Positions 23,611 to 47,605 of a stretch of 64,000 bases of DNA are shown one piece after another. Both the position numbers and the translations under genes were made by a program. Below the pieces are notes generated by a model. That model searched no databases. It had not been told where the DNA came from and saw nothing but the letters and a program-made list of their open reading frames with translations. Position 1 is the stretch's first letter, and every line of letters begins with the position of its first letter. Origin of the DNA: a virus; IMG/VR virus record IMGVR_UViG_3300024520_000060, positions 5,997 through 69,996 of that record; one strand, given 5' to 3'.

Positions 23611-23611
23611 A

Positions 23612-30959: not shown

Positions 30960-30969
30960 TCACCAACCT

Positions 30970-31001: not shown

Positions 31002-31168
31002 CGTGTCCGTCGTGTACTCGCTCGCTCACAGCTCGCACCTGGACTTTGGATTCTGGATAGGCCCTAGGGCCCGCGTCCAAACAGGACGTCACCTGGTCCT
31101 GCTCACAGCCCCGAAAAGAAAGCGAGGAAAGAGTAGCCCCGGGTCAGATCGTAGGGTAGAGTGAGGCA

Positions 31169-31668: not shown

Positions 31669-31910
31669 GCTGGCCCGCTCGGGCCCATCCAGCCATCCTG
31701 GGTCCACTCACCGGCAGCCTCGTCTGACGTATCCATGACCAGGCCTCCGACCTCGGTCGGGTCGAACATCAGCATCGGGATGGAGACGCCCGCCAGCTGG
31801 TACCCACACTCAGCGAAGAGCTGGAGAGCGATCTCTTCAGCAGCTTCCCTGGTGGGTCCAGTGGCGATCACGATCTTCGACCCATACCGGGCTATGAGTC
31901 CGACAACCAT
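31665..31910 (-). CDS. hypothetical protein
   Basis: Coupled to the ssb stop. Confidence 0.6.
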   Translation of the reverse strand: MVVGLIARYGSKIVIATGPTREAAEEIALQLFAECGYQLAGVSIPMLMFDPTEVGGLVMDTSDEAAGEWTQDGWMGPSGPA

Positions 31911-32293
31911 CAGAAAGGGGTGTCGTCGTCGGTAGATCCACCGGCAGCGACAGCCTTCTTCTCGCCGACGAACTCCCAGTCCTGGGCATGGACCACGAGC
32001 TTGCTTCGCTTGTCCCCTGTCGTCTTGTCAGACCAGGTCTCGTACTTCAGGCTGGCACGAGGGAAGAGAGCGGCACTGCCCTTGCCATGGAACTTGGCGA
32101 AGGCCTCGGCACGCTTGCCGAAGAGCTTCACATCGACAAAGCAGGGCTCATCGACCCACTCGTCACCTTGCTTCCGGCGACCATTCACCGCCAGCCCGAT
32201 GGAGGTGTAGGCCACCCCTCCTCCCGAGAACCGCAGGTCGACGTCACGGGTCAGATGACCTCCAAGGACGACGACGTTGACGTTGTTGCTCAC
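31910..32293 (-). CDS. ssb: single-stranded DNA-binding protein
   Basis: NVVVLGGHLTRDVDLRF, FVDVKLFGKRAE, ETW.DK.TG.KRSK, acidic DDDTPF tail. Confidence 0.95.
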   Translation of the reverse strand: MSNNVNVVVLGGHLTRDVDLRFSGGGVAYTSIGLAVNGRRKQGDEWVDEPCFVDVKLFGKRAEAFAKFHGKGSAALFPRASLKYETWSDKTTGDKRSKLVVHAQDWEFVGEKKAVAAGGSTDDDTPF

Positions 32294-32559
32294 AGGGTGG
32301 CCAGGTTGAGGAGGACGCCGGAGATGACGCCCACGAGACGAGAGTCAGCGGCAGAAGCGACCATCGTCGTGCTGACGCCAGCCTTGAGGGCGATGGCGTT
32401 GCGAGTGGCGATGAGGGCCTTGTCGAAGCCAGGCTCATTGGAAGCCAGGCTCAGACGAGCACCCTGCGCGATGGTGTACGCGACGAGTTCGTCGCTGGAG
32501 ATTTTGAGTTCGGCCCCGGTCTCTTCGAGAGTGGAGCGGATGAGGTCTTCGGTGTTCAT
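32290..32559 (-). CDS. hypothetical protein
   Basis: 89 aa, overlapping starts and stops on both sides. Confidence 0.6.
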   Translation of the reverse strand: MNTEDLIRSTLEETGAELKISSDELVAYTIAQGARLSLASNEPGFDKALIATRNAIALKAGVSTTMVASAADSRLVGVISGVLLNLATL

Positions 32560-32993
32560 TGGGCGTAGGGGTTGGAGTAGGAGAGGGAGAGACGACGCTC
32601 AGCGACCCGCTGTTCCGCAGTCGGGAGACCGCGAGCTTGGGCCGAGAGGAAGGGTTTCTGGATCTGAAGCATGGCCTGGTTCATCTGGTTCAGCTGCTCG
32701 GTGAGCAGGAGGAATCCATTCGGGCCGATCGTACCCGCGTCCAGCTGGTTCTGGATACCGTCGGCACCGGCAGCGTTGAGAACGGCCCACGGCACCTGCC
32801 GAAGAAGAGCCTTGGACTCAGCCTCAATGGCTGCGTCCATGTCGCTGACGGCCTGCGTGGGAGGCGTGGTGGCCTCCATCACATCAGACCTGACAGCGGG
32901 CCAGGCGTTGACGATGGCCGGCACGAGGGTGGAGTCCTCCGCTCGGGAGGCGAGGCAGCTGCTGAGGAGTAGGACGAGGAGTAGATGCTTCAT
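32556..32993 (-). CDS. putative lipoprotein
   Basis: MKHLLLVLLLSSC lipobox-like start at 32993. Confidence 0.6.
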   Translation of the reverse strand: MKHLLLVLLLSSCLASRAEDSTLVPAIVNAWPAVRSDVMEATTPPTQAVSDMDAAIEAESKALLRQVPWAVLNAAGADGIQNQLDAGTIGPNGFLLLTEQLNQMNQAMLQIQKPFLSAQARGLPTAEQRVAERRLSLSYSNPYAQ

Positions 32994-33265
32994 GAAGTCT
33001 TGGGTCCGATCTTGGAGATTCCGCGAGAGACAGAGTAGGCAGCGACTGCCCACTGGATGAGTTGAAGGCCCTCGTCCCGAAGAACAGGGTCGTGGGAATA
33101 GGAGCCGAGCGCGACCAGGCCCATGCCGGCAGCGAAGGCGATGGCCGTCAGCTTGAACTCAGAGGTGGTGGTGCCCCGACGAGGAGCAGTGGAGGCAGCA
33201 CGCAGTTGGTCGGCGAGTGCCTGGATGGAGACGAGTTCAGGTTGGGTGGTCATGAGAAGATGCAC
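32990..33265 (-). CDS. holin-like two-TM membrane protein
   Basis: TTSEFKLT-TM1...TM2-YSVSRGISK pattern. Confidence 0.55.
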   Translation of the reverse strand: MHLLMTTQPELVSIQALADQLRAASTAPRRGTTTSEFKLTAIAFAAGMGLVALGSYSHDPVLRDEGLQLIQWAVAAYSVSRGISKIGPKTS

Positions 33266-33334
33266 CAGCAGAGGGCGTAGAAAGGGACAACGTAGAGAAT
33301 GGCATACACCATCCCGACGAAGAAGGAAGAGGGT

Positions 33335-33931
33335 TCAGTAGCGGTGGATTGTGTCATTGAACGAGATCAGTCCTAGCTCTTTGGCGAACAGGGTTCCGCC
33401 ATCGTTGTCAACGTCGAACGTCGGGATGTCCAGCTCAATGTACGACCGGCTATCTGCCGAGAAATCGTACCCTTCCCGGGTGATCCTGACTAGAGAACAA
33501 TTGGCTTTCCCATAGGCAGCCACGAGTGACTCTGCCTCTTCCACGAACCCGCTGTCCGTGATGATGTGTGTCCACCTGGCTCTCATGTGCTGCTCATGCT
33601 TCCTGAGCTTCGCCACAAGGAGTTCTCCGAGGAAACCCTGGCCGTGGGTAGGCTTCATCCAGGATTCGCTCACGGCGATGTACGCGTCTCTGGGGGAGAT
33701 ACCGTGAAACTCCTCCAGGGGGTTGTCCTTGACCTGCTCGAAGTAGTCGTGACCGAGCGGATGCCCACCCTGGTCAAAGAGGAGGTAGAGGGCGTGGGTC
33801 CGCTCCTTCAGGATGGCCGACAGCTTGGCCATGTTGGTCAGACCAAGGTCCTTCCGTTGGGCCAGCACCATCCCGGCGAAGTCCTTCCCCGAGCGGGGAG
33901 GGCCGTTCACGAAGATCAGACGATGGTTCAC
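33335..33931 (-). CDS. P-loop kinase, deoxynucleoside monophosphate kinase-like
   Basis: IFVNGPPRSGKD Walker A, PRDAYIAVSE, IITDSGFVEE. Confidence 0.8.
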   Translation of the reverse strand: MNHRLIFVNGPPRSGKDFAGMVLAQRKDLGLTNMAKLSAILKERTHALYLLFDQGGHPLGHDYFEQVKDNPLEEFHGISPRDAYIAVSESWMKPTHGQGFLGELLVAKLRKHEQHMRARWTHIITDSGFVEEAESLVAAYGKANCSLVRITREGYDFSADSRSYIELDIPTFDVDNDGGTLFAKELGLISFNDTIHRY

Positions 33932-33962
33932 AGCGTGTACCCTCTCTCCTTGCCTTCGGCGT

Positions 33963-34454
33963 TCATCTCAGACCTTGCTTGTACTTGTAGAGGACTTCAG
34001 CTGCGTCGGGCTTCTGCCAGCCTTCAGGCTTCAGAGGCTTGGATCGCGGGCCAGCAGCCACCTTCGCCATGTTCGCACGCTGTACATCACGCCAGAACGG
34101 CATGAGGGGTAGGCCCAGCGCGACGAGAGTACCCACCACAACGTAGATGACGTCGACGGCTTCCGAGGCGATCTTGGCCAGGTTGCGACCCATGATGGCC
34201 TCGCAGAGTTCCTCGCACTCCTCACGGATCAGCTCACACCGGAAGACCAGCATGCCATGGTAGGGAGTGTCATTGGGTGTCGTCGGGGCCGGGTGGCCAA
34301 ACTTCAGATGGAAGTCACTGACGTCCTCGTAGATCCCGTGCTCCAGCCCCTCTGCCGCGTCGGCACACTCGTGGAGGAGCTGGGAGTTTGAGATGCGCTG
34401 CGAACTTCGACTCAGTTCGCGGAGAGTCTTGGATAGCTTCATCGGCTGGGTCAT
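33963..34454 (-). CDS. MazG-like nucleotide pyrophosphohydrolase
   Basis: V.DFH.KFG, LIREECEEL, EAVDVIYV..G, V.RANMAK, KPEGW. Confidence 0.85.
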   Translation of the reverse strand: MTQPMKLSKTLRELSRSSQRISNSQLLHECADAAEGLEHGIYEDVSDFHLKFGHPAPTTPNDTPYHGMLVFRCELIREECEELCEAIMGRNLAKIASEAVDVIYVVVGTLVALGLPLMPFWRDVQRANMAKVAAGPRSKPLKPEGWQKPDAAEVLYKYKQGLR

Positions 34455-35574: not shown

Positions 35575-36023
35575 CGGTTGTTCTCCATGCTCGGGCGACC
35601 GGGAAGGGGTGACATCCAGAGCGGGGCCTTGATGATGTCCTCGCAACAGGCAGCCTCGGCAACCGCGAAGGCTGCTTGGTTCTTGATCTTGGCCGTGACG
35701 TAGGTGAGTGTGACAGCCTGGGAGAGGGTCACATAGTTGGCGTTCGAGGCTGCGATGCATGCCTCGTCGCCTTCACAGGCAGCGACAGCCTTCTGGTTGA
35801 TGAAGAGGAGAGACTCCATCGACTCTGCGAGTGTCGTCGCAGCTTCGTTGTTGGCCTTCCGCTTGGCCGTGCTCGCGGTGAGCCAGCACTCCCAGTTCAT
35901 GGTCTGACCATCGGCGCAGGGACCCAGGGGTTCCGGGTCGATCTCCCCCTGCTGCGGAGGCTGCTGCGCGCCGAGTACGAGTGCGGTGAAGGAGAGGGCG
36001 AGAAGGGCGATGTTGAGGTTCAT
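35571..36023 (-). CDS. exported Cys-containing helical protein
   Basis: Signal peptide MNLNIALLALSFTALVLGA; six Cys. Confidence 0.65.
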   Translation of the reverse strand: MNLNIALLALSFTALVLGAQQPPQQGEIDPEPLGPCADGQTMNWECWLTASTAKRKANNEAATTLAESMESLLFINQKAVAACEGDEACIAASNANYVTLSQAVTLTYVTAKIKNQAAFAVAEAACCEDIIKAPLWMSPLPGRPSMENNR

Positions 36024-36046
36024 ATGGTGCTTTCAATGTTGAGTGT

Positions 36047-36084
36047 CATGACTTCATACTACCCCGGGAATGCTTCCGGGGCGG
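36047..36084 (-). promoter_or_regulatory. variant promoter module driving a 9-codon leaderless uORF
   Basis: CCGCCC-CGGAAGCATTCCCGGGG-TAGTAT-GAAGTC-ATG; uORF MTLNIESTI* at 36020-36049 overlaps the ATG at 36023. Confidence 0.55.
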
Positions 36085-36343
36085 GTCGAACTTCTTCGCC
36101 ACGGCAAATGGCTGGCTCACAGGCAGTTACAGCGTCCAGAAGCTTCTGAAGGTAGGAGACATCTCGGCGGAGACCCTCCCGAGCATTCCATGCGTTGGCC
36201 TCTGAGATGCCTCCGGTGCCTCGTAGATCGGCGTACCGTTCTTCGGCTGTCTCCAGGTTCGCCATCGCATACTCGTGCATGTTGGCGAGTGGCTTGCGGA
36301 CCTTGATGTAGACCCGCTCCTCTTGGTTCCTGTACTTGGCCAC
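36059..36343 (-). CDS. hypothetical protein
   Basis: Likely GTG start (AKYRNQEERVYIKV) overlapping the upstream TAG. Confidence 0.55.
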   Translation of the reverse strand: MAKYRNQEERVYIKVRKPLANMHEYAMANLETAEERYADLRGTGGISEANAWNAREGLRRDVSYLQKLLDAVTACEPAICRGEEVRPAPEAFPG

Positions 36344-36513
36344 TACGTCGTCTCCCAGAACTTGATCAGACGTTCCATGACCTCGGGCTCCAGGGTCACA
36401 GTCCTCTCCTGGGGCCAGCCTTTGTCTACCAAAAGGATGATGGCGTAGTCTGTCCGGGTGGCGATGACGCCGTCGCCAAGGTTCTCTGTAGGCATACCGT
36501 TTGTGCCGCTCAT
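36343..36513 (-). CDS. 56-aa hypothetical protein
   Basis: MSGTNGMPTENLGDGVIA...VTLEPEVMERLIKFWETT*; ATGA overlap. Confidence 0.6.
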   Translation of the reverse strand: MSGTNGMPTENLGDGVIATRTDYAIILLVDKGWPQERTVTLEPEVMERLIKFWETT

Positions 36514-36659
36514 GATTGACCTCGGCAGGCGTTGCGGTTGGCTTGTTTCTTGCGGTTGGTGAACGAGCGGGCCCGACCCTTGGTGGTGCTGGCCAGGCCG
36601 GCACCGCGTCGTTTGGCTTGCTCGACTCCCATCGGCAACTTCTTCGTGTGATTCTTCAT
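36510..36659 (-). CDS. 49-aa basic early peptide
   Basis: MKNHTKKLPMGVEQAKRRGACLASTTKGRARSFTNRKKQANRNACRGQS*, behind a full module. Confidence 0.7.
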   Translation of the reverse strand: MKNHTKKLPMGVEQAKRRGAGLASTTKGRARSFTNRKKQANRNACRGQS

Positions 36660-36710
36660 GCCTTCAACCTACCCCGACATCTGACCCGGGGCTACTTTGA
36701 TCGGGATTTC
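36654..36710 (-). promoter_or_regulatory. promoter module (57-bp exact repeat of 37461-37517)
   Basis: TAGCCC-N17-TAGGTT-GAAGGC-ATGAAG. Confidence 0.85.
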
Positions 36711-36711
36711 C

Positions 36712-37119
36712 TTACAGCATGCCTTCCAGGTGCTGCTCGGATACACCTGAACGCTTCGGAACCTTGTACTCGAACCCGTGACCATAGTAGCCGTTCTGGG
36801 AGTTGAACAGGTGGAGGTACATCCGAGAGGAACCACCGTCGTTCCTACGCAAGCGGAAGATCGCGACACCACCATACTCAAGATGTTCGGGCTCGGCCTC
36901 TACCACTTTCCAGGTGGTGTCGAACTCCCAGTTCTCCCAGTCCAGCTCCTTGTCTGTGTCCTCATAGGCGTCGAACTCTAGCTTGGGCTCTGGGCTGAGA
37001 AACCAGTCAGCGTGCTCACAGCAGTCGTGTGTACTGTCGTAGCCAACGAACACGTTGTGCTCGTCTACGAAGTTGTGTTTCTCATGGTAGATACCGTTTG
37101 CTGATTCGAAGTATTTCAT
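36712..37119 (-). CDS. hypothetical phage protein
   Basis: HDCCE...NSQNGYYG motif common in small phage proteins. Confidence 0.7.
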   Translation of the reverse strand: MKYFESANGIYHEKHNFVDEHNVFVGYDSTHDCCEHADWFLSPEPKLEFDAYEDTDKELDWENWEFDTTWKVVEAEPEHLEYGGVAIFRLRRNDGGSSRMYLHLFNSQNGYYGHGFEYKVPKRSGVSEQHLEGML

Positions 37120-37466
37120 GATGCGTTGTGTACCGTGTGGGCGTTCCAGCCAGCGACGAAGGAGGTGATACTCGGTTCGCCCACTCCTTTGTAGTCCTTC
37201 ACGAAGTTGAACCAGGCAGTTCGGATGACGGGAGAAGCCTGACGACTACAGACGACCTGTCGCGTGCGGGTCTCGTTGGCGTAGACCGAAGCCTCGTCAC
37301 GATAGTACCCTTCCGTCTTGCTGACCCAGCAGCCAGCCTTGACCAGGCATTCGGCAGCCTGGGCAGCCTCGTGACAATCCAGACGCGCCCCGATGAGCTC
37401 CGCGTCCGACATCCGCTTGGCTTGGGCTTTCTTCGCGACCCAATCGATTTCCGTTGTTTGCTTCAT
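37116..37466 (-). CDS. hypothetical early protein
   Basis: MKQTTE start behind module. Confidence 0.7.
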   Translation of the reverse strand: MKQTTEIDWVAKKAQAKRMSDAELIGARLDCHEAAQAAECLVKAGCWVSKTEGYYRDEASVYANETRTRQVVCSRQASPVIRTAWFNFVKDYKGVGEPSITSFVAGWNAHTVHNAS

Positions 37467-37517
37467 GCCTTCAACCTACCCCGACATCTGACCCGGGGCT
37501 ACTTTGATCGGGATTTC
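37461..37517 (-). promoter_or_regulatory. promoter module (57-bp exact repeat of 36654-36710)
   Basis: Identical sequence; its TAG is also the stop of the GGDEF gene. Confidence 0.85.
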
Positions 37518-37969
37518 TTCTGATTGAACATGGAACGGTCCGCCATTTCCAGCGAGGAGCCCATGCCCACCGATGCGTTGACCCAGCAGTCGTTACTGTA
37601 CCATTTCGAGATCACCTGGAAGATCCTGTGAGCCCCAGCAGAGGTCGAGCACCAGACAACGAACTCGTCGCCTCCCAGCCTACTGACCACGTGATCCGTG
37701 TGCTTCCTCACAGATCGCTGAAGGAACTCTGCAAACTCACGGAGGATACGGTCCCCGTAGAGGTGGCCGTCCGGGTGCGCGTCCTGAGCAGCCTTGAACT
37801 TGTTCAGGTCAGCCACAATGAACCAACCCTCCCGAGCATTGACTTTGCTCTCTAGACCTCGTCGGTTGGACAGGTCGGTCAGGGGGTCTGTTTCAGCGAG
37901 GTGCCGGAACTCGTCGCGCTGACGCTCCAACACATCGATGCGGTTCAGTAGCTGTGCGGTTGTTTCCAT
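37499..37969 (-). CDS. GGDEF-domain protein (diguanylate cyclase-like)
   Basis: TDPLTDLSNRRG, ADLNKFK, GHLYGDRIL, SRLGGDEF; short N-terminal coiled coil. Confidence 0.9.
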   Translation of the reverse strand: METTAQLLNRIDVLERQRDEFRHLAETDPLTDLSNRRGLESKVNAREGWFIVADLNKFKAAQDAHPDGHLYGDRILREFAEFLQRSVRKHTDHVVSRLGGDEFVVWCSTSAGAHRIFQVISKWYSNDCWVNASVGMGSSLEMADRSMFNQKKSRSK

Positions 37970-38003
37970 GCCTCACCCTACCCCCGGATCCGGCCCGGGG
38001 CTA
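37967..38003 (-). promoter_or_regulatory. promoter module for the GGDEF gene
   Basis: TAGCCC-CGGGCCGGATCCGGGGG-TAGGGT-GAGGC-ATG; the TAG is the ClpP stop. Confidence 0.8.
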
Positions 38004-38570
38004 ATCTTTCTCTGACCAAATCTGGTCGATCAGGCCCCACTCCAGAGCCTGTTCGGCACCGAAGTATCGATCGGTGCTCGCCTTGCTGAGTCGCGACCAG
38101 TGCCTGTAGGGCATGTCAGTGTACTTGGCGAGTAGCCTGTCCATCCGCTCACACCGTCGCTTGATTGCCGCCATGGTGCCGTCCACGTTCGCCATCTGAC
38201 CGTCGAGTTCTACGCTCGCTGTGTGCAGCATGAACTCGCAGTTCTCGCTGGCGTACCGCTCGCCGCGACTCCCACAGGCCACGAGGAAGGGAGCTGCCGA
38301 CATGCACATCCCGAGCGCTGTGGTGCGGACCGGCACCCTGATGGTACGGGTCACATCGTGGAGGGCGAACGTCTCGTCGATATCCCCACCGTAGCTGGCG
38401 ATGAAGAGGTCAATCGGTGAGTCACCATCGTCCGCCATGAGGTACATGCCTCGGATGGCCGTCGCGATGGTGTCAGACTCTACGTCACCCTGGAGGAAAA
38501 TCCTCCGACCTCGGACGTCGATGCCGTACTCTAGAGCAGCCTCCAGGTTGACCTTGAACGCGTCGGTCAT
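38001..38570 (-). CDS. clpP: ClpP-family protease
   Basis: RRIFLQGDV, IDLFIASYGG, GMCMSAA (catalytic Ser), FMLH, DRYFGAEQALEWGLID. Confidence 0.9.
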   Translation of the reverse strand: MTDAFKVNLEAALEYGIDVRGRRIFLQGDVESDTIATAIRGMYLMADDGDSPIDLFIASYGGDIDETFALHDVTRTIRVPVRTTALGMCMSAAPFLVACGSRGERYASENCEFMLHTASVELDGQMANVDGTMAAIKRRCERMDRLLAKYTDMPYRHWSRLSKASTDRYFGAEQALEWGLIDQIWSEKD

Positions 38571-38806
38571 TTCGGGAGGTTGAGCCAGGCGTGTTGGTCA
38601 GACCCGGGACAGCGGTCCCGAGCGGTACCCTCCCTGGAGTGGCGGAAGGGCCTGACTGAACGAAAGACGTCGCCGAACTTCGTGGTCTCCCTGGCGCGGA
38701 ACGGACGCCCACACACCCTGCAGAACACGGGCCTTTCGCCGGCAAGGGCCTCTTCGAACTGAATCGTGAGTTCCTTCTGGAGTTTTGCGTACTCGTCGCT
38801 GTTCAT
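38567..38806 (-). CDS. small Cys/His protein
   Basis: CRVC...RH...CPGS. Confidence 0.6.
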   Translation of the reverse strand: MNSDEYAKLQKELTIQFEEALAGERPVFCRVCGRPFRARETTKFGDVFRSVRPFRHSREGTARDRCPGSDQHAWLNLPK

Positions 38807-39087
38807 TTCTTCAGCACCTCGTGTACAGCATCAAGACCGAACGCTTCGATTAGACGATCGATGATCTGCTCCATATTCGCGATTCGCTTGTCCCGAGCCT
38901 CGATCTCGTCGGCCGCAATGTCGGTCAGCTCTTCGCCTTCCGCTCTCAGATGCTGGAGGATGTCGACAGTCTCCCAGCAATCGCGGGAGCAGAACTCGTA
39001 GAGCCAAGGCTTGTCGATGTCGTTGGAAGCCTCTATGGTCAGGGCATCACGGTCACAGTCGGGACCACAGCAGGGGAGGTTGGTCAT
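38803..39087 (-). CDS. small zinc-finger plus coiled-coil protein
   Basis: CCGPDC...FCSRDC. Confidence 0.6.
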   Translation of the reverse strand: MTNLPCCGPDCDRDALTIEASNDIDKPWLYEFCSRDCWETVDILQHLRAEGEELTDIAADEIEARDKRIANMEQIIDRLIEAFGLDAVHEVLKK

Positions 39088-40397
39088 AGTTTGAAGTCCG
39101 GTAGCCAGAGTTGTTGGGGGTCGGGCTCTCCGAGCCCTGGGTTTTCGTACACCTTGCCTTCAATCACACAGATCCCCTCGCTCGTGACGACAGGGTACTG
39201 ATGGACCCGGCCTCCCGGGTGCACGAAGCATACCCCGAAACCTGTCTGCCAGCCTGTATTTCTCTTCTTGAACATGTAGCTCCGACCGGCCCGGGGCACA
39301 CAGCCCATCGGAGTTGACATCCAGGATCGGGCTCCTCCGCGTTCTTCGGTGGCGAAGGCCATCCCGGCCCGGTGAACGTGGCCACTCTGTCCCGAGTAGC
39401 CGTGGTCCCGAAGCTCAGTCAGGGCCGGTGTCTGCCCAAGGGCATGGCCGTGGTAGATCAGGTAGAAGTCATGGAAGAGGGTACCCGGTAGATGGTCCTC
39501 AGTCCCCACAGGTGACGCGATGGTGCCACCTTGGGCCAACTTCACCCCATACTCCGCAACTCCCGCCAGGCGGTCGAAGCGGAGCTCCTCGACGTCGCCC
39601 ACCTTGATGCCCAGCCCACTCAGGGAGCCGGACACTTGGCTGAGGTACATGGCGATGCGGTCCAGACCGTGGTTGCCACTGCCCCAGATGAGCTCTCCGT
39701 CGTAGACCTCCCTGATCTGACGCATCATCTCACGAGCGAAGGCGAACTCCATGCTCATGGGAACTGACCAGCCCGGGATCTTCGGGTGACGACTGATGGC
39801 CGCACCCTCCAGGATGTCTCCGTTCAGGTAGACATAGTCGGGCTCCAGCTCCTGGATGGTACGGAGGAAGCACCACCAGGTGAAGGGGTCCAGGAAGGTG
39901 GCGTGGGTATCTGAGATGCTGACGACACACTCGACGTCGCACAGTCCTCGCTCGTCTGGGTCGTACACGTGGGGATGCATGTACCGTTCCTGGTAACGAC
40001 CACCATGCTCTCGCCTACTCTGTTGGGCCCTTGCTGCCTTGGCCGTCCGGGTTCCAGGCTGGTCAGCCAGGCCCGCTACCTGCTTGGCGTGTTCGAATTG
40101 GCCGAACTCCTGCTCCAGGAAGGAGATGTACCATCGGCCGAATCGCTTGTACCTCTTCCGACTGAGGGTCTTGTCCTTGTAGAAGGGGTTGGTCTGAGGG
40201 TCTGACGCCACCCTGCGCATGTCGGCGAGGAGGTCCTCGGTGGTGGGCGGTTCCTTGATCTTGGAGTTGCGCTCGCGCTCCTCCTCGGCAGCCTCTTCGG
40301 CCTTCCGGAGATGGTACTTCTTGAGTTCAGCCTCGTTCTTCCGAACACTGTCGGGAGCGGAGAGGAATGAACTGAGGTCGTGGGGTTCGTCTGTCAT
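39084..40397 (-). CDS. calcineurin-like metallophosphoesterase
   Basis: ISDTH, LNGDILE, GNH, YHG, GHVHR motifs; likely start MTDEPH at 40397. Confidence 0.88.
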   Translation of the reverse strand: MTDEPHDLSSFLSAPDSVRKNEAELKKYHLRKAEEAAEEERERNSKIKEPPTTEDLLADMRRVASDPQTNPFYKDKTLSRKRYKRFGRWYISFLEQEFGQFEHAKQVAGLADQPGTRTAKAARAQQSRREHGGRYQERYMHPHVYDPDERGLCDVECVVSISDTHATFLDPFTWWCFLRTIQELEPDYVYLNGDILEGAAISRHPKIPGWSVPMSMEFAFAREMMRQIREVYDGELIWGSGNHGLDRIAMYLSQVSGSLSGLGIKVGDVEELRFDRLAGVAEYGVKLAQGGTIASPVGTEDHLPGTLFHDFYLIYHGHALGQTPALTELRDHGYSGQSGHVHRAGMAFATEERGGARSWMSTPMGCVPRAGRSYMFKKRNTGWQTGFGVCFVHPGGRVHQYPVVTSEGICVIEGKVYENPGLGEPDPQQLWLPDFKL

Positions 40398-40648
40398 AGT
40401 TGCGTGAATCCAAGATGCATCCGGAGGTGGATGCGGAGTGTCTTCTCTGAGCCCATGCCCCACTTGGGGCCGAAGTAGCCGGACCAGATTGAATGGATGG
40501 TGTGGTGGATGGTGCCGTCCATCCGCCCTGCTGCGTACTCGGCCACCTCGGCGGCGAGCTTGGGATTCTTGCAGACGGAGCACATCGGGGAAACCCGAGT
40601 GCCAGGGGGAGGAGCCTCACCTTTGAGAAAGTCGCGGAATTCACTCAT
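40394..40648 (-). CDS. small CxxC..HxxxH zinc-binding protein
   Basis: CSVC...LRIHLRMH; start at 40648 set by TAGCCT-N17-TAGACT-N6-ATG. Confidence 0.65.
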   Translation of the reverse strand: MSEFRDFLKGEAPPPGTRVSPMCSVCKNPKLAAEVAEYAAGRMDGTIHHTIHSIWSGYFGPKWGMGSEKTLRIHLRMHLGFTQL

Positions 40649-40683
40649 GACCATAGTCTACCCCGAACAGGGCCGGAAGGCTA
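40646..40683 (-). promoter_or_regulatory. promoter module variant (TAGCCT, no dyad)
   Basis: TAGCCT-TCCGGCCCTGTTCGGGG-TAGACT-ATGGTC-ATG. Confidence 0.75.
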
Positions 40684-40685
40684 GG

Positions 40686-40716
40686 AAAAGAGAGCCCGAC
40701 TGGGAGTCGGACTCTC
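40686..40716 (-). terminator. intrinsic terminator
   Basis: Minus strand GAGAGTCCGACT-CCC-AGTCGGGCTCTC-TTTT. Confidence 0.75.
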
Positions 40717-40759
40717 GCTAGATATTGTCACCTCCTTGTCAGCGGGGTGTGCCCCTACT

Positions 40760-41239
40760 CTACCGGAAGGCTGCAGGATGGGTAGGGGAAACCTTCAATC
40801 GTGCCTCCCGCATGGACTGGATGACGTCCCCGTACCTTGCTGCGGTGTAGACGTCCAGCAGCCGAGCGTACTCCTGACAGAACTCAGGCCCATGGGCAGC
40901 GAGATCCCAGGAGTCAGGACCCAGGTCCCGACGACGTCTCTGGATGGAGTGGGTGAGCTCGTGGAGCACATACCACGTTGTCTGGGTGACACGGTAGGAG
41001 CCCGACAACTTGATGAGGTGGCCCGTTGCGGTGCCCCTTCCTCGGTTGTTCATGACCCGAATCTTCGGGACCGAGCCGAGGTGAGCCCACTCCTGGGCCC
41101 AGACCTCGTTGACCAGCCGTTGGGCCCCAGCCTCTCCGAGCGGGGTGTTCTCTTTGTCGGTGACCAACCATGCCGAACCGAGTTCTGCGAGTTCCCATCC
41201 GTAGAGCTTGGATCTCTGACTGTCTCTTTGTTTCTTCAT
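40760..41239 (-). CDS. HExxH zinc metallopeptidase-like (SprT-like) protein
   Basis: VLHELTH...HGPEF; MKKQ start behind module. Confidence 0.75.
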   Translation of the reverse strand: MKKQRDSQRSKLYGWELAELGSAWLVTDKENTPLGEAGAQRLVNEVWAQEWAHLGSVPKIRVMNNRGRGTATGHLIKLSGSYRVTQTTWYVLHELTHSIQRRRRDLGPDSWDLAAHGPEFCQEYARLLDVYTAARYGDVIQSMREARLKVSPTHPAAFR

Positions 41240-41277
41240 GCCTCAAGATACCCCGAGATCTGAGACGGGGCTACTTT
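41237..41277 (-). promoter_or_regulatory. promoter module
   Basis: AAAG-TAGCCC-CGTCTCAGATCTCGGGG-TATCTT-GAGGC-ATGAAGAAA. Confidence 0.85.
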
Positions 41278-41291
41278 ACTCTCTAGATATG

Positions 41292-41331
41292 AAAAGGCCC
41301 GCACCCCCATGAAGAAATCAGGGTGCGGGCC
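41292..41331 (-). terminator. intrinsic terminator with a 14-nt loop antisense to early gene starts
   Basis: Minus strand GGCCCGCACCC-TGATTTCTTCATGG-GGGTGCGGGCC-TTTT; perfect 11-bp stem, 24 nt after the DUF932 stop. Confidence 0.85.
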
Positions 41332-41355
41332 GAGGCTCCGTCAGGAGAGGTGCCT

Positions 41356-42378
41356 CTAGACACTGGCGAGCGCGACCTTCATGGCCATGGCCTTGTCGCG
41401 GCTGCTCGCTCCGAAGATGTTGTTGCCGACCCGAGCATCAGACTCGTCGATGCCCCCGAAGTTGCCGCGATCGTGGTCGTGGAACTCGGTGACCGCATTG
41501 AGTGCCGCCCATGCGGTGCCCTGGATGCCGCGAATCTTCTGACGCTCGTTGCAGAGGTTGACTTCCCACTGCTCGATGAGGTTAGTACGCTTCAGCGTGA
41601 GACGCTCGAGGATCTCTGCCGAGACTTGGAGCGGTTCCGGGAGGGTACCGTAGGTTGCATCGTAGATGCTCTCGAGGAGCTTGTGAGTTCCCTCAGCGGT
41701 CAGCTTCTTGCCCACCAGGGCAGTGACCTTCTCCTGGAACTTCTCGGCCTGACCGATGGCGAGCCCAAGCACCGTCTGGGCTTGCTTGATCTTGTTCTCG
41801 AAGTTGCCGGTGTGCTGGAACTTGATGCCGCCAGCGTTCTGCTCAGACCACGCCAAGGTGTTCGCGCAGCAGACGCGGATGGCCGTGTCGTAGCAGGCTG
41901 CCGCAGCCGTGCCGCCGTGGCCGTTCTGGACCAGGATGTACTGCTCGAGCACATCGTCGGCCGAGGCCCGGATGATACCGGGCAGCTTGACCAGGACGAA
42001 CACCCGACGGCTGTCGTAGAGCGAGCCAGCCGTCTCAACCGTGACCGCCGCATCCTGACCAGCGAGGGCGTCAGCGAAGGCAGCGACGTCCTTGTTCTGG
42101 AAGGGAGTGTAGCTCTCAGTGACGAGGCCGAGCAGCTGACTGGTGTCGCTGCGGAGGTGTGCCCGGTAGGGGTTCTTCCCGGCGAGCGGGACTTGGGTGC
42201 CGTTCGCCATGGTGGCGGTGAGCGGAGCGAGCTCGGTGTCCCAGTCAAGGCCGATGAAGGGGAATGCCTCCTGAGCGGAGAGACCTTCTTCGATCTCGCT
42301 ACCCAGACCGTGCCATGCACGCTGCCCGTTCTTCCTGACTTCGCCGTACCTGTCCGTTCCCATGATCATGTGAGCCAT
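41356..42378 (-). CDS. DUF932 family protein (LGT_TIGR03299-like)
   Basis: AWHGLG, LDW, Y.PFQN, VETAGSL, NGHGG, IRVCCANTL, GTAWAALNAVTEFHDH; start MAH at 42378 with GGAG SD. Confidence 0.9.
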   Translation of the reverse strand: MAHMIMGTDRYGEVRKNGQRAWHGLGSEIEEGLSAQEAFPFIGLDWDTELAPLTATMANGTQVPLAGKNPYRAHLRSDTSQLLGLVTESYTPFQNKDVAAFADALAGQDAAVTVETAGSLYDSRRVFVLVKLPGIIRASADDVLEQYILVQNGHGGTAAAACYDTAIRVCCANTLAWSEQNAGGIKFQHTGNFENKIKQAQTVLGLAIGQAEKFQEKVTALVGKKLTAEGTHKLLESIYDATYGTLPEPLQVSAEILERLTLKRTNLIEQWEVNLCNERQKIRGIQGTAWAALNAVTEFHDHDRGNFGGIDESDARVGNNIFGASSRDKAMAMKVALASV

Positions 42379-42419
42379 TGTTCTTTTCTCCGTGAAAGGT
42401 GTTTGCTTCAGACGCAAAC

Positions 42420-42452
42420 AGTGTACCCGGCCCTGCCCGAGAAGGCTACTTT
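42420..42452 (-). promoter_or_regulatory. promoter module variant driving a leadered transcript (DUF932)
   Basis: AAAG-TAGCCT-TCTCGGGCAGGGCCGGG-TACACT, then a ~35-nt leader with SD instead of an immediate ATG. Confidence 0.75.
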
Positions 42453-42468
42453 ATCTCAGATCTTTGTC

Positions 42469-43188
42469 TCAGCCACTGAACTGAGCGATCATCAGGTCGG
42501 AGATCATGAACCATGTGCCATCAGTGAGGCCAAACTGCCAGGAATGACCAACATGACTCTGGACAGCATCTGTGATGCTGTCAGGGTCGTGTCCGTAGAG
42601 GCGGGCAATCGTGGAGATGGTGTCCACCTGTTTCGCCGTGAATGTACCCGGCCAACCGCCACGATCATAGGTGCCCAACCCGTGGGGGTCGATGAACCCA
42701 CAATGGTAGCACTTCGCATGGTTCTCCCCGGTGGTGGGGTTGACCACCATGTCATTCATATCGTGCTGGCCACTGAGCCACTTCTGACAGATGGAGGGAA
42801 GCACGGTGTTGAACTCGTCGATCGCGTGGGCGGTCTGCTGGGTAGAGCTCGTCAGCTTGTCCAAGGCAGTAGTGATGACGTCCTCTGCGAGCTTCTTCCC
42901 GAGCCTCTCCATGAGCTCCTTGTCTGGGGCGGGGAAGTGGTGGCCACCCTTCAGGGGTTCCTGCTCGGCGTCGCGCCCATACCCACTGACTTCGGCGGAC
43001 CTCCGACACTCGTCACCATAGGTGGACATCTTCATGTCCCCTACAGTGAACGAGTAGGACTCTTCGGCTTTCAGCTTTCCGTCCTGGGCTAGGAGTACCT
43101 GGCCCATGGCGTCGCGCTCGCTCTCTGCCTGGATAGTCCCGGAGTCGATATGCTTCGACCCGCAGTAGATCTTCCACTTGATCTTCAT
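42469..43188 (-). CDS. hypothetical protein
   Basis: 239 aa, coupled operon. Confidence 0.6.
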   Translation of the reverse strand: MKIKWKIYCGSKHIDSGTIQAESERDAMGQVLLAQDGKLKAEESYSFTVGDMKMSTYGDECRRSAEVSGYGRDAEQEPLKGGHHFPAPDKELMERLGKKLAEDVITTALDKLTSSTQQTAHAIDEFNTVLPSICQKWLSGQHDMNDMVVNPTTGENHAKCYHCGFIDPHGLGTYDRGGWPGTFTAKQVDTISTIARLYGHDPDSITDAVQSHVGHSWQFGLTDGTWFMISDLMIAQFSG

Positions 43189-43613
43189 CAGGTGGTCTCA
43201 GCCCCCGGGAGGAATCGGTGACTGCACTCGGGACACTCGAGGACGCCTGCCGGAGCAGCCGAGTGCTTCTGGATCTCATTGTTGATCACGATCAGCATGT
43301 AGCGGTCCTCCAGTTCCTCACCCTGGCAGATCATGAAATCCCCGCCCTGGAACTCCAGGGTAGCCACCTCTCGGAGGAAGTTCAGTGCCTCCCGCATACC
43401 ATAGGTCTTCTCGGACCCGTTCCACCTGAGCCCATGCAGCTCCTCGGTCAACTCCAGGTCAAAGTGGTTGAACGGGAGCTCCACGCCCGGGACGCCCAAG
43501 GAGGGGTCCAGATCTCGCTTGTCCTTGCCCAGGTACTGGTTCAGGATGCGGACCCTCTCCAGGTTCAGGTTGCGGATGCGGATCGTACCGACGTACTCTG
43601 TGCTGTAGCCCAT
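43188..43613 (-). CDS. hypothetical phage protein
   Basis: MGYSTEYVG..LRWNGSEKTY..QGEELEDRY pattern; C-terminal CPEC. Confidence 0.7.
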   Translation of the reverse strand: MGYSTEYVGTIRIRNLNLERVRILNQYLGKDKRDLDPSLGVPGVELPFNHFDLELTEELHGLRWNGSEKTYGMREALNFLREVATLEFQGGDFMICQGEELEDRYMLIVINNEIQKHSAAPAGVLECPECSHRFLPGAETT

Positions 43614-43789
43614 CAGAATTCCTCTACTTCCTTGACGGTCTCGACGTCGTACAGTTGATAGTCTCGCTCGTGTTCCGAGACGAAGGTGTCCCAGTTGTTC
43701 GGATCGTAGGGGTCGGCCTTGTCGTCCTCGATCTCAATCTCGAGCTCAACTTGGGCGCGGTACTCGGCAATGATGATGTAGCGTTTCAT
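43613..43789 (-). CDS. 58-aa acidic protein
   Basis: MKRYIIIAEYRAQVELEIEIEDD...VEEF*; TGATG coupling. Confidence 0.55.
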   Translation of the reverse strand: MKRYIIIAEYRAQVELEIEIEDDKADPYDPNNWDTFVSEHERDYQLYDVETVKEVEEF

Positions 43790-43858
43790 GAGAGGAGGCT
43801 CGTCATCTTCACGATGTAGGTCACGATGATGGCGCCAAGGACCAACGCCCAGAACAGG

Positions 43859-44194
43859 TCACGCTTCTTCACACTCAAACTCCGTGTAGGGTACTTCACC
43901 TTCAGAGGTGAGGACAATGACTTCGCTCGTGTACCACCAGTCCAGGACTTCCACCTGCTCTCTAGGGTAGTCTTCCGTGGCCCTGAGCCACAGCTTGGTG
44001 CCCACCTCGGGGCCTACCGGATCGGGAAAGAGAGCCGAGTGCATCTCCTTCGTGTGTCTGTCGCAGAGGTCCACCCCCTCCTCGGGCACGATCCATTTCG
44101 TGGACCCAAGGGTGTAGTGGGTGGTTCCCTCGTCTTTGCATCGGGGCCACTGACAGATATACCCGTCAGCCTCCCGCCACCTCGGTTGCTTCAC
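43859..44194 (-). CDS. hypothetical zinc-binding protein
   Basis: CQWPRC...LCDRH. Confidence 0.6.
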   Translation of the reverse strand: MKQPRWREADGYICQWPRCKDEGTTHYTLGSTKWIVPEEGVDLCDRHTKEMHSALFPDPVGPEVGTKLWLRATEDYPREQVEVLDWWYTSEVIVLTSEGEVPYTEFECEEA

Positions 44195-44427
44195 AGGCTC
44201 CGAAGCTCGTCTTCGAGTTCCTCGTCGACTTCGATCAGGTCGCTGATCTTCGAGCGAAGACCGTAGAGATAAACCTCCACATCCATCCCGGTGGGGATGG
44301 CGTAGCTCTTGATGAACCCGAGCTTCTTGAGCTCCATCAGGTCCTCGATCATCGCGTCGATGTCGCAGTGTGCCGTGCGGCCCAGGGGGATGTTGATTCC
44401 ATCATCGTTGTCTGTTTGATTCTTCAT
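44191..44427 (-). CDS. acidic early protein
   Basis: MKNQ start behind TAGCCT-N17-TAGAGT-GAAGCC. Confidence 0.7.
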   Translation of the reverse strand: MKNQTDNDDGINIPLGRTAHCDIDAMIEDLMELKKLGFIKSYAIPTGMDVEVYLYGLRSKISDLIEVDEELEDELRSL

Positions 44428-44463
44428 GGCTTCACTCTACCTCACTCACACGGGAAGGCTACT
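44425..44463 (-). promoter_or_regulatory. promoter module variant
   Basis: GAG-TAGCCT-TCCCGTGTGAGTGAGG-TAGAGT-GAAGCC-ATGAAGAATCA (spacer 16). Confidence 0.75.
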
Positions 44464-44482
44464 CTGTCTGGAATCTTTGTGT

Positions 44483-44638
44483 CTACTCGTCGATGCGGTC
44501 GCCCACTGTGATGTCGCCATCGCCATCGGTGGAGGTGTCGAACTGGGCACCACAGATGCTGCAGGTACAGGTGTCACTGTAGGGGCCGTCGCTGTGTAGA
44601 TCCATGGCGTGACAGATGGGGCATTCTTCGAACATCAT
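44483..44638 (-). CDS. 51-aa zinc-ribbon protein
   Basis: MMFEECPICHAMD...TCTCSICGAQF. Confidence 0.55.
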   Translation of the reverse strand: MMFEECPICHAMDLHSDGPYSDTCTCSICGAQFDTSTDGDGDITVGDRIDE

Positions 44639-44961
44639 CAGATTGAATCCCAGTATTTTTGGGTTGCGGCGTCGGCGATCTCATCTTCCCACTCGGTTTC
44701 GATCTTCTGTATGATGATGGGCGGCAGCTCGCCAGTGTACTTGTGACAGGCTCGGATCATTCTCTCCGTGTTCACTTCCTCGACCTCCAGAGCCTCGATC
44801 ACCTCGTCGATGTCGCCCACCTCCCAGGTGAAGGACTCACACCCACCGGGGTCCGCAGGGTAGCCGGGGTCTCCGTTGGAGTATGTATGTACCCCCGGGT
44901 CTCCTGGGTCAATCTCCGCCTCAATGTTGAGGCCACGGTACTCCAGATCGATGGTATGCAT
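44638..44961 (-). CDS. acidic hypothetical protein
   Basis: YSNGDPGYPADP motif; coupled operon. Confidence 0.65.
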   Translation of the reverse strand: MHTIDLEYRGLNIEAEIDPGDPGVHTYSNGDPGYPADPGGCESFTWEVGDIDEVIEALEVEEVNTERMIRACHKYTGELPPIIIQKIETEWEDEIADAATQKYWDSI

Positions 44962-45209
44962 CAGTTCTCCAGGTGGTTTCGGATCAGTTCTTCCAGGTCC
45001 GGCACGGGCCGTGCCTGCTCTTCACTCAACAATACCCCGGCCCAGCGGGCGAAGCGGCATTCAATTGCGGAACCCGCCATTTGCCTCTCTTCGCGCTCAC
45101 CGTTCGGGAATTCGATGCTCACAGTGATGACCCCTTTGCCGGCAGCTTTGGCCTCGGCTCGGAGTTCCTTCGGGTAGCTCGTGCGCAGTTTCAGCTTCGG
45201 TTCTGCCAT
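44961..45209 (-). CDS. hypothetical protein
   Basis: Coupled to the primase stop. Confidence 0.6.
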   Translation of the reverse strand: MAEPKLKLRTSYPKELRAEAKAAGKGVITVSIEFPNGEREERQMAGSAIECRFARWAGVLLSEEQARPVPDLEELIRNHLEN

Positions 45210-47605
45210 CAGAATGCGTCCTTGTCACTTGGGGGTGCGATGGGTTCCTTCTCCCACTCGGTAGCGCTGCCACTGTATCGGTCATACGCTTCGCGCATCT
45301 CCCTGAGGAAGGGTAGCGCGAACACGTAGGGGCGGGCGGAGTGGGTGGTCTTTTCCTGACCGCTGGAGGGGTGGACGTTCCGGCCCTGGATGTTGTGGAT
45401 GCCGGTGCCGTCAATCTGCTGCTTGGTGTCCCGACCGATGACCTTCTTCAGGAAGGTTGCCATCTCACCGATTCGGATGCGACTGGCTGCCGAGTTGTAG
45501 TCCCAGCACACCATGCCGGTCTGCACCAAGGCACCGTTGGTCAGGATGACGTCATCCAGCACACCCTCCTGGAGGATGGAGACCCACCAGCGCTCCAGGC
45601 TGTTGCCTGACAGGTTCTTCTGCTCACTTAGAGCAAGGGTCTTGGGCCTACTGGCTTCGGCGTGGAAGTCGCCCACATCCCGGGCCATGAGCATGTAGAG
45701 CAGGGCCTCCCGGCCACCGTTGTCCAGCTCGGCATTCACCGCGTCGAAGTACTCGCGATCCTGGACTCGGCTGCTGTTGACGTCAAGCACCACAAACCGA
45801 CGATCACCCTTGGAGATCCTCACCGCCAGCTCTTCGTTCGACGCCATGATGATCCGGAGGTAGCTGGCCCTCTGACCGGCAGCCTTGAACTTGGCGTTGA
45901 TCGCGATCGTTTCCTCCGTCACCAGGGCCTTGACGATGGACTCACCCTTCTTGTCCATGTTCGCCCCCACAGCCTCGTCAGCGAAGAGCGTGACGCAGTG
46001 CTCCAGGTGGCCGTTGAAGCTACCAACCAGGAGGGAGGGGTCTGTGATGGTCATCCCGTGGCTCCCGAAGAGCTCCGTGAAGGGTTTCGCGAACGTACCC
46101 TTGCCCGTGCCTGGTGCTCCCCTGAGAACCAGGGCCGTACCAATCTTCCGGTGAGGCTGCTGCACGGACTTCGCCATCCAATTGAGCAGGTACTCGTAGA
46201 TGGTCGTGTCCCCACTCGCGACCACGTTCAGGATGTGGGCGAGGTAGAGGTCACATGACCCACCCGGCAGCGGCTCAACAGCAAACCCCTCCCACGTGTT
46301 CAGTTCGTCCTCGGCCACGGATACCCCGGGAGGAGCGAACTTGTCACGGGCGTAGGACCGGCGATCCTTGTGCTCCCACCAGTGCTTCCCGAGCGGCACC
46401 TGCCGAGGGTCGCCCTTGTCGTTGACGATAGTCACGAACTGATTGGCGTAGAAGGCAATGAACTCGTTGGGCTTGTGGGCCTCCCCCGTCACAAGGTTGA
46501 CCACCCTCTGGCCCACCCCGTCGTAGGCGAGGACCGCAGCGAACTCGTCATTGATGTCCATGAACCCGGAGCTGATCTTGACCAACTCCCTGGCCCGTTG
46601 GATCTGACGCTTGGCGTAGCCGTCCGTCCTGCCATTGGACCCGTCTATGACAGAGTCGCTGACCGCGAAGTCCGGGTCAGTGATAACCGAGTAGATGACG
46701 TCGTCGGAATAGTCCCCGCGCACCAACTCGCAGCACACGAAGTGCAGCACTGACGAGCGGTCGACGCCACCGCCTTCCTTGGCCCACCGGGTGGGGTCGT
46801 CGGGGTCGCAGCCCTGCACGATGGCCACCTTGGCCAGGTCGCTGGCTGCCTTGAGCTCCACCATGACGTCCTGGATACGCGGCAGGTTGCCGGAGATCAC
46901 GATGGACTTGCCCCTGTCGGCGGTGGCGATGTCAGACTTCGCCGCCACGGAGGGGGCCTTGATGAACCGGGTCAGAGGGTACTCGGCATCAGTGGTGGAG
47001 ATCACCACGGCAGGAGCTATCTTCCTCCCCTTGCTGACCTTGCGCTGGTCAGGGTAGTTGGTGGTGCCCGGCAACCGGGCGATCCGGTCGACGTTGTGGC
47101 AGTGGTCAGCACCGAAGAGGAGTTCAAGCTGGAGGTTGTACAGCTTGGCCTCGTCGTACCTCTTCTCGTTGGCATTGATCGCGAACGGGTCAGTCAGTCG
47201 CCAGAACGCCCAGTACCCGCCACCGCTGTCGGTGATTGCGCTGGGAGCTGGCATGTCCTTGGGGAGCCCTGTGGTGAGGAGACTGAGAATCCTTGCTCGC
47301 TCCTCATCAGGGTCCTCCCCGGCTCGGGGGTCCAGGTCCACATGGAGGAAGGCGAGTTCCTTGATGTCCAGTCGAGTAGCCTTCTTCTCCATGTCCCGGT
47401 TGGGCGGGTTGACGCTGAAGTAGAAGTTGAATTCTCCATTGTCGAGATCTGTAAGCCAGGTGCCAACAAGAGATGCGTCCTTGGGGTAGAAAGTTCGGGA
47501 GTTGGTAGGGAGGCCTGACTTGCGCTCTACAGGGATCGCCGTGAGTAGCCACGGGCCCTGCGGGTACATGTACGTCAGGAATTCAACAGCAGCAGCAGAC
47601 GCCAC
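45209..47605 (-). CDS. primase-helicase (RepB-like primase plus NrS-1-like/DUF5906 SF3 helicase)
   Basis: YFSVN, HVDLD, SGGGYWAFW, RIARLPGTTN; GAPGTGKG Walker A, LFADE, IIMASN, DRRF. Confidence 0.9.
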   Translation of the reverse strand: MASAAAVEFLTYMYPQGPWLLTAIPVERKSGLPTNSRTFYPKDASLVGTWLTDLDNGEFNFYFSVNPPNRDMEKKATRLDIKELAFLHVDLDPRAGEDPDEERARILSLLTTGLPKDMPAPSAITDSGGGYWAFWRLTDPFAINANEKRYDEAKLYNLQLELLFGADHCHNVDRIARLPGTTNYPDQRKVSKGRKIAPAVVISTTDAEYPLTRFIKAPSVAAKSDIATADRGKSIVISGNLPRIQDVMVELKAASDLAKVAIVQGCDPDDPTRWAKEGGGVDRSSVLHFVCCELVRGDYSDDVIYSVITDPDFAVSDSVIDGSNGRTDGYAKRQIQRARELVKISSGFMDINDEFAAVLAYDGVGQRVVNLVTGEAHKPNEFIAFYANQFVTIVNDKGDPRQVPLGKHWWEHKDRRSYARDKFAPPGVSVAEDELNTWEGFAVEPLPGGSCDLYLAHILNVVASGDTTIYEYLLNWMAKSVQQPHRKIGTALVLRGAPGTGKGTFAKPFTELFGSHGMTITDPSLLVGSFNGHLEHCVTLFADEAVGANMDKKGESIVKALVTEETIAINAKFKAAGQRASYLRIIMASNEELAVRISKGDRRFVVLDVNSSRVQDREYFDAVNAELDNGGREALLYMLMARDVGDFHAEASRPKTLALSEQKNLSGNSLERWWVSILQEGVLDDVILTNGALVQTGMVCWDYNSAASRIRIGEMATFLKKVIGRDTKQQIDGTGIHNIQGRNVHPSSGQEKTTHSARPYVFALPFLREMREAYDRYSGSATEWEKEPIAPPSDKDAF

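Follow-up and report, generated by a model that had tools for sequence, protein, structure and literature searches.

A 3′-end hairpin with an oversized loop complementary to the shared start of leaderless early genes in an uncultured marine phage: a candidate anti-start element

Closest described systems

In the IS10/Tn10 system, the exposed hairpin loop of the antisense RNA-OUT nucleates pairing with the 5′ end of RNA-IN and blocks translation; RNA-OUT is encoded opposite its single target, to which it is fully complementary over ~35 nt. Here we describe a hairpin behind the DUF932 gene of an uncultured marine phage, the loop of which is complementary to the first codons of about twenty module-led genes. 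RNA-OUT/RNA-IN may be regarded as the nearest known system in mechanism to the loop pairing proposed for this hairpin, with the differences that the phage element is encoded away from its candidate targets, matches them by its loop only (8 to 14 nt), and would have up to 20 of them. Small RNAs derived from enterobacterial 3′ UTRs (of the CpxQ, SroC, and DapZ type) pair with translation start regions through a segment of the terminator end; their seed is usually single-stranded ahead of the terminator, and their targets have ribosome-binding sites. In location these RNAs are otherwise the nearest to the phage element, whereas the seed of the latter would lie in the terminator loop itself and its candidate targets should be leaderless. 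We know of no case in which a small RNA or a 3′ UTR pairs with leaderless 5′ ends. The phage antisense immunity RNAs c4 (P1/P7), CI (P4), and sar (P22) also use exposed loops to pair with repeated words in their own messages, and are separate processed genes that act on the ribosome sites of one operon. When window positions 36000 to 46000 were scanned with the Rfam 15 covariance models at E-values up to 1, two weak matches at chance level were returned and none at the hairpin, C4 being among the models of this full scan. Judged by sequence, the hairpin belongs to no described RNA family. A literature search, restricted to titles and the openings of abstracts, returned no paper on antisense RNA directed against leaderless phage messages. 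In the part of a 2022 review consulted here, leaderless initiation is described as being inhibited by structure at the start codon, and for sRNAs the effect on this step is entered as ‘Unknown’ (PMC9031893).

The nearest genomic setting appears to be that of the PeSLs (promoter-early stem-loops), which are repeated cassettes of the T4-type phages RB49 and phi1 (Arbiol et al. 2010, PMC2839356) and which the promoter modules of the present phage resemble. Within the excerpts of that paper used here, the likeness extends to: (i) repeated small cassettes ahead of small genes of unassigned function; (ii) an A/T-rich stretch that often contains the upstream stop codon; (iii) a promoter resembling those of sigma-70 and carrying a stem-loop of G/C runs, which is most often placed between −35 and −10; and (iv) the shuffling of genes by inter-cassette recombination. 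The two differ in that a PeSL ends in a Shine-Dalgarno site and start codon, whereas the −10 box of the phage modules lies 6 nt from the ATG and leaderless messages are expected. Unlike in the excerpted PeSL descriptions, the conserved word of the phage modules reaches into the coding sequence by 8 to 12 nt, TAGCC stands as the −35-like box, and a loop complementary to the gene starts is present, none being described there for PeSLs (PMC2839356). The PeSLs, in addition, are known from T4-type phages, and no T4-likeness is claimed for the present phage.

The hairpin, the start tag, and their match

The DNA analyzed (the window) is a stretch of 64 kb with a GC content of 61%, taken from a 69,996-bp IMG/VR virus record that is complete and derives from an uncultured marine phage; seawater metagenome runs were found to contain the DNA of the window, and no RNA run was among the public runs listed for it. 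The features in and around the hairpin are as follows.

42388–42448, minus strand: promoter and leader of the DUF932 gene, with TAGCCT (42448–42443), TACACT (42425–42420), a 5′ hairpin, and GGAG (42391–42388)
41356–42378, minus strand: DUF932 gene, encoding 340 aa if read from its ATG at 42378 (PF06067, E-value 8.7e-45)
41332–41356, minus strand: small upstream hairpin in the DUF932 3′ UTR, GAGGC...GCCUC, overlapping the stop codon by its final letter
41296–41331, minus strand: the hairpin under study, with 5′ arm 41331–41321, loop 41320–41307 (UGAUUUCUUCAUGG), and 3′ arm 41306–41296
41291–41295, minus strand: U-tract, UUUUC, short, with only 4 U
41240–41290, minus strand: promoter module of the next gene, composed of an A-rich stretch, TAGCCC, a spacer inverted repeat, GGGGTATCTT, 6 nt, and the ATG
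40760–41239, minus strand: leaderless gene of 159 aa, starting ATGAAGAAACAA, with an HExxH-like HELTH motif detected by eye
40690–40716, minus strand: terminator after the 159-aa gene, with a 12-bp stem, a 3-nt loop, and a U-tract; the comparison case with an ordinary loop

The DUF932 gene terminates at a stop codon on the minus strand (41356–41358), and the corresponding database entries begin at the ATG at 42369, which yields 337 aa. An earlier note on this DNA had proposed that the gene is driven by the same promoter type as the cassette genes while carrying a leader with a Shine-Dalgarno site; this was upheld, as TAGCCT followed by GGGTACACT, a leader of ~40 nt, and a GGAG ribosome site were all found. 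The hairpin begins 25 nt past the stop codon and reads GGCCCGCACCC / TGATTTCTTCATGG / GGGTGCGGGCC on the minus strand (41331–41296), followed by TTTTC. Its stem, a perfect 11-bp GC helix (11 to 12 bp, 0 mismatches), encloses the 14-nt loop UGAUUUCUUCAUGG, as originally noted. For an 81-nt RNA including the hairpin, the predicted folding energy is −42.2 kcal/mol (z = −4.8), a stability reached by none of 200 shuffled sequences. In the minimum-energy fold, the loop is narrowed by one U-G and two weak A-U pairs, leaving UUCUUC (6 nt) open. The other strong terminators of the window have loops of 3 to 5 nt, and the terminator scan admits loops of up to 8 nt, which is why the hairpin with its 14-nt loop was missed by the scan. 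On its sequence, the hairpin is best explained as an intrinsic terminator at the 3′ end of the DUF932 message, an early one. The U-tract reported for this terminator does follow the stem, but it comprises only UUUUC (4 U) in the window and is gone in the close relative L095; because the tract is weak, read-through at the hairpin is likely.

The tail UUUUCAU (41288–41295, minus strand) could likewise pair with AUGAAAA and, if one G-U pair is allowed, with AUGAAGA. RNAcofold joined this tail to every tag at approximately −5 kcal/mol, while pairing of a loop with a 5′ end lies beyond the model of that program. The complementarity of the tail may be due to chance, since similar tails of a T-tract plus CAT occur behind unrelated hairpins. 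Mimicry of the initiator-tRNA anticodon loop was considered and rejected, as the loop has 14 nt instead of 7 and the GC pairs, inspected by eye, stand in the opposite order. The product of the 159-aa gene had no match in Pfam. Among the minus-strand neighbors at 37499–38570 and 45209–47605 are a stand-alone GGDEF protein, a ClpP protease, and a DUF5906/VapE-like primase-helicase. As a separate observation on word usage, TTAA is absent from the whole window (0 versus ~94 expected from base composition), and CTAG (63 versus 227), GCGC (205 versus 546), and TATA/ATAT are low as well. This usage points to avoidance of a restriction-type word or to a tie with the thymidine modification genes mentioned in the earlier note. 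Avoidance of this kind was rejected for CATG, which occurs 343 times against 227 expected.

Twenty-three promoter modules were recognized in the window, each composed of an A-rich stretch that often contains the stop codon of the preceding gene, TAGCC, the repeat CCCCGGG-N-CCCGGGG in the spacer, and a TAnnnT box. In 20 of the 20 tagged modules the end of the −10 hexamer is 6 nt from the ATG, with no Shine-Dalgarno site between the two; as this is the usual spacing of such a box from the first transcribed base, transcription is expected to begin with the A of the start codon. The window holds 23 module-led leaderless starts in total, of which 20 begin ATGAAGAA and 5 begin ATGAAGAAATCA. Recounting behind the modules reproduced the twenty ATGAAGAA starts reported earlier (17 plus-strand starts together with 36659, 41239, and 44427), and the three untagged starts are located at 37466 (ATGAAGCAA), 37969 (ATGGAAACA), and 40648 (ATGAGTGAA). 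The second codon is AAG at 21 of the 23 starts. Where the tag encodes lysine at codon 3, AAA is used in 10 of 10 cases compared with 13% genome-wide (74/558; 66 long ORFs), and where it encodes serine at codon 4, TCA is used in 5 of 5 cases compared with 8% (85/1031). The start tag is, thus, constrained at the nucleotide level, and this constancy would be the product of either selection or repeated copying of the module plus first codons. The leaderless start forms considered for reporters were AUGAAGAAAUCA and AUGAAGAAC. By eye, an 8-bp inverted repeat, CCGGGGGT ... ACCCCCGG, was recognized across the −10 box and first codons of the first cassette (23110–23170), and the sense tag sits in its loop.

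The loop UGAUUUCUUCAUGG is the exact complement of CCAUGAAGAAAUCA. Counts of these words in the window bore out the earlier statement that five gene starts pair with the loop at 12 of 12 positions: ATGAAGAAATCA occurs 6 times in 64 kb, where 0.00 are expected and 0 of 100 shuffles reach 6, and its sites are the gene starts at 23149, 25832, 27385, 27706, and 31169 plus the loop itself (41309–41320, plus strand), with no further site in the window. The shorter word ATGAAGAA occurs 26 times compared with 1.0 expected, and 20 of these sites are starts behind a promoter module. The complementarity between loop and tag is, thus, no chance event. The candidate targets on the plus strand are as follows.

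23080–31180, plus strand: array of 17 promoter-gene cassettes, all starting ATGAAGAA, with 8 to 12 nt complementary to the loop
23149–23160, plus strand: candidate target, tag ATGAAGAAATCA preceded by CC, 14 of 14 letters matched to the loop
25832–25843, plus strand: candidate target, 14 of 14 letters
27385–27396, plus strand: candidate target, 13 of 14 letters
27706–27717, plus strand: candidate target, 13 of 14 letters
31169–31180, plus strand: candidate target, 12 of 14 letters

The full match at 23149 and 25832 counts the CC ahead of the ATG. Across the 20 tagged starts, contiguous complementarity to the loop ranges from 8 to 14 nt. Of the five 12-nt tags, four are predicted to form a duplex with the loop at −15 kcal/mol and one at −17.3 kcal/mol, and the values for the remaining tags lie between −8 and −11.5 kcal/mol. 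At tag position +9, G is avoided despite being able to pair with the U of the loop, which indicates that pairing does not explain all of the constraint on the tag.

The modules were further examined in contigs of run X4, which derive from relatives ~90% identical to the window. These contigs run from module to module in many different ways (15 joints listed of 24), with skips, back-joins, and strand changes at 23175, 25181, 26434, 27714, 31142, and other positions (regions 23000–31600 and 36600–41300). One variant is without 40756–41287, the cassette beside the hairpin, and aligns with the window again from 41288, where the U-tract lies. These joints match cassette shuffling as known from PeSLs. 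Window positions 31732–34442 are inverted in L095 (16292–20115; orientation by blastn), which indicates that large rearrangements occur beside the cassette arrays. When IMG/VR was searched with the module pattern AAAGTAGCCCCGGG, 44 single matches and 0 contigs with an array were found; a promoter-plus-tag pattern likewise gave only single matches among the 80 listed of at least 119.

The hairpin in relatives and controls

The loop was compared with those of one close relative (L095) and of L089, L073, L053, L090, and L091, while P0002 to P0005, with DUF932 proteins 74 to 90% identical, were left out. L095 has 64 to 83% nucleotide identity to the window, with 68% across the hairpin stretch. Its hairpin is 83% identical to that of the window (30 of 36 columns), compared with 37% in the non-coding flank before it and 56% in the one after. 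All 12 aligned loop letters were found unchanged, the sole difference being a deletion of 2 nt, while the stem has lost one base pair and gained two G-U pairs and still folds. The complement of the L095 loop, CCATGAAGAACA, matches a module-led gene start of L095 itself, at 7686, over 12 of 12 letters. We estimate the probability of 12 unchanged loop letters at a per-site identity of 60 to 70% to be ~0.002 to 0.014, and, given how improbable this is at neutral identity, the loop word looks constrained in the L095 lineage. An in-frame internal deletion has left the DUF932 gene of L095 (10001–10147) with only 48 codons; its promoter, leader, and hairpin are retained, and the U-tract behind the hairpin is gone. 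The persistence of hairpin and promoter through both changes suggests that the hairpin is kept for more than ending DUF932. The remnant has the form of a short transcription unit of roughly 225 nt that ends in the anti-tag hairpin. Reciprocal specificity between the two genomes was absent, as the L095 loop fits the window gene at 29406 over 12 of 12 letters and the window loop fits an L095 site across 11 nt.

In L089, where DUF932 is 63% identical, two hairpins were detected behind the gene. The second of these has nearly the same stem as the hairpin of the window and carries the letters TTTTCATGGG; however, in its minimum-energy fold UUU is paired with GGG and the open part is only a UCAU tetraloop, so the shared letters probably pair inside the stem. 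A provisional reading of this loop as a 10-nt anti-start was downgraded after the predicted fold. The complement of the L089 loop has four sites of at least 8 nt, all of them gene starts of the CCATGAAA type; such matches are also simply the common start context. The L089 modules (6200–16000) have their upstream half (GACTTACG and an A-rich stretch) in common with those of the window and differ in the promoter half; their leaders are ~35 to 50 nt, CU-rich, and without a clear Shine-Dalgarno site, and the gene starts are varied, with no uniform tag. One copy near 12966 resembles the leaderless type of the window, with a GTG start. The loops of L073, L053, L090, and L091, whose DUF932 proteins are 53 to 62% identical, are unrelated at the same position. 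No repeated modules were found in the whole L073 genome, which, for this reason, neither tests nor supports the anti-start idea. In L090 (1168–1260), a stretch just past the DUF932 stop was seen by eye to be imperfectly complementary to the region where the next gene starts, the two flanking the terminator hairpin; by its sequence, this arrangement may be a cis anti-start. The earlier note had looked to relatives for a loop that is kept while the stem drifts. This pattern was recovered in L095, with its 12 of 12 loop letters, compensated stem changes, and 12 of 12 match to its own start, but not in L073, L053, L090, and L091, nor in L089, where the letters are probably paired; strict co-variation was absent.

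The stem type GGCCCNCACCC...GGGTGNGGGC proved to be generic, with at least 203 instances in at least 120 IMG/VR stretches. The shared stem was consequently dropped as a sign of homology between the window and L089, the likeness being weak evidence of common descent for a stem so widespread. Of the 203 hairpins listed with this stem type, 8 have loops of 14 nt or more, and TTCAT, CATGG, and ATGAA are absent from the loops of all 203. Similarly, no further TTCAT/CATGG loops of this kind were found in 813 hairpins from 33 related loci. A pattern of the loop plus 3′ arm gave 72 matches, 10 of which form some hairpin and 0 of which are homologues. No close relatives were found in the ‘phages’ collection by megablast or blastn, the best DUF932 matches in that collection by tblastn were at most 31% identical, and scans of IMG/VR with single proteins returned no match. 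Alignment of the 159-aa protein recovered the L073 genome and L101, the latter with a homologue of the 159-aa gene within an operon and without the hairpin. Two distant MAG matches from a scan of genome contigs (42 to 44% identity) were left out.

Proposed mechanism and competing readings

Based on these comparisons, we consider it quite possible, if short of an even chance, that the loop is a functional anti-start word. The fuller proposal, which we put forward tentatively, is that this word pairs with the 5′-terminal AUG and first codons of ~20 leaderless early messages from PeSL-like cassettes and tunes the whole regulon. In this proposal, the oversized terminator loop of the DUF932 message would display the anti-start word, and either the complete DUF932 mRNA or a stable piece of its 3′ end, closed by the hairpin, would pair through the loop with the 5′-terminal AUGAAGAA... 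of the cassette messages. Such pairing would hide the 5′ AUG needed by the 70S ribosome, and the cassette genes would be damped together. The effect would be graded, being strongest on the five 12-nt tags (~−15 kcal/mol) and weaker on the others (−8 to −11.5 kcal/mol). We also count in favor of the proposal the X4 variant without the downstream cassette, with its joint at 41288. The sign may also be the opposite, in that pairing at the 5′ end could protect the messages from 5′-end-dependent decay. A weakness of the proposal is that the DUF932 transcript is of the early type as well, so that the regulator would appear at the same time as its targets, in a ratio of roughly 1:20. Geometry sets a limit on the extent of pairing: a full helix of 12 to 14 bp is impossible in a closed 14-nt loop without strain, and the inner pairs leave 6 nt open. 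The one-RNA shut-off proposed in the earlier note is, thus, partly supported at the level of sequence, by the anatomy, the non-chance complementarity, and L095, while the unrelated loops of the distant relatives count against it.

The alternative offered in the earlier note was that the loop is a captured relic, i.e., that a fragment of a module start reached it by module-driven recombination or template switching and has no function, the hairpin being a terminator or insulator. We find this doubtful. The plus strand of the loop region does share 18 nt with module 1, as had been pointed out, but the complementarity to the tag ends precisely at the loop boundaries and the plus strand ahead of the loop word is without a module promoter. 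A capture would be in keeping with the modules as active recombination sites (the X4 skips and back-joins and the variant without the cassette beside the hairpin), with the inversion of the 31.7–34.4 kb segment in L095, and with the tolerance of loops for insertions; nonetheless, the hairpin persists in L095 even though most of DUF932 has been deleted there and the U-tract has disappeared, and such a word is found in 0 of the 203 hairpins listed with the same stem type. The more distant relatives, with ordinary and unrelated loops at the same position, are those expected of a relic, whereas a neutral loop should drift and L095 keeps 12 of 12 letters between flanks of 37 to 56% identity and beside a changed stem. 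Capture is, thus, possible as the origin of the loop and fits poorly with its conservation in L095. The two ideas are mutually compatible, and the loop word probably arose as a captured copy of a module start that was then kept.

It is unlikely, in our assessment, that the loop is functional in some other way, as a binding or cleavage site, through cis pairing with the adjacent gene start in read-through RNA, or as a DNA site. Conservation of the loop in L095 would agree with any of these, and the loop includes a GAUUU stretch, which we take to be reminiscent of RNase E sites; no protein partner can be named, however. Regarding cis pairing, the anti-tag of the window lies ~70 nt from the tag of the next gene, with which it makes up an inverted repeat of 10 nt, and read-through past the weak U-tract is likely, but the match to the adjacent gene is poorer (10 of 14 letters) than that to genes 15 to 18 kb away (14 of 14), the same holds in L095 (7 nt versus 12 nt), and an internal AUG without a ribosome site requires no masking. 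The nucleotide-level constraint on the tag could reflect a function in the promoter or initial transcript, with the word read as DNA, yet a DNA site gives no reason for its exact placement in a hairpin loop. A tiny plus-strand gene starting at the ATG in the loop (41309) can hardly be credited: although the plus strand reads ATGAAGAAATCA... as in the tagged genes, there is no TAnnnT 6 nt upstream and no module ahead, and the frame has 16 codons in the window, ~10 (hand reading) or 111 (computed) in L095, and 393 in L089, where it runs antisense to DUF932; neither lengths nor products agree between the genomes.

If the loop were a relic after all, it would serve as a warning that repeated promoter modules scatter inverted fragments that mimic antisense regulators. 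If instead the anti-start reading is true, it would bear on the open question of how leaderless messages are individually regulated, and the hairpin would become the first example of an RNA that regulates leaderless translation initiation. The reading would further imply that (i) a 12-letter start tag can define a regulon post-transcriptionally; (ii) regulatory seeds can sit in terminator loops; and (iii) mobile promoter cassettes can carry their own regulation while shuffling genes. The rare codons (AAA and UCA) common to positions 3 and 4 of unrelated genes would likewise be explained, by a system as compact as one hairpin and one tag.
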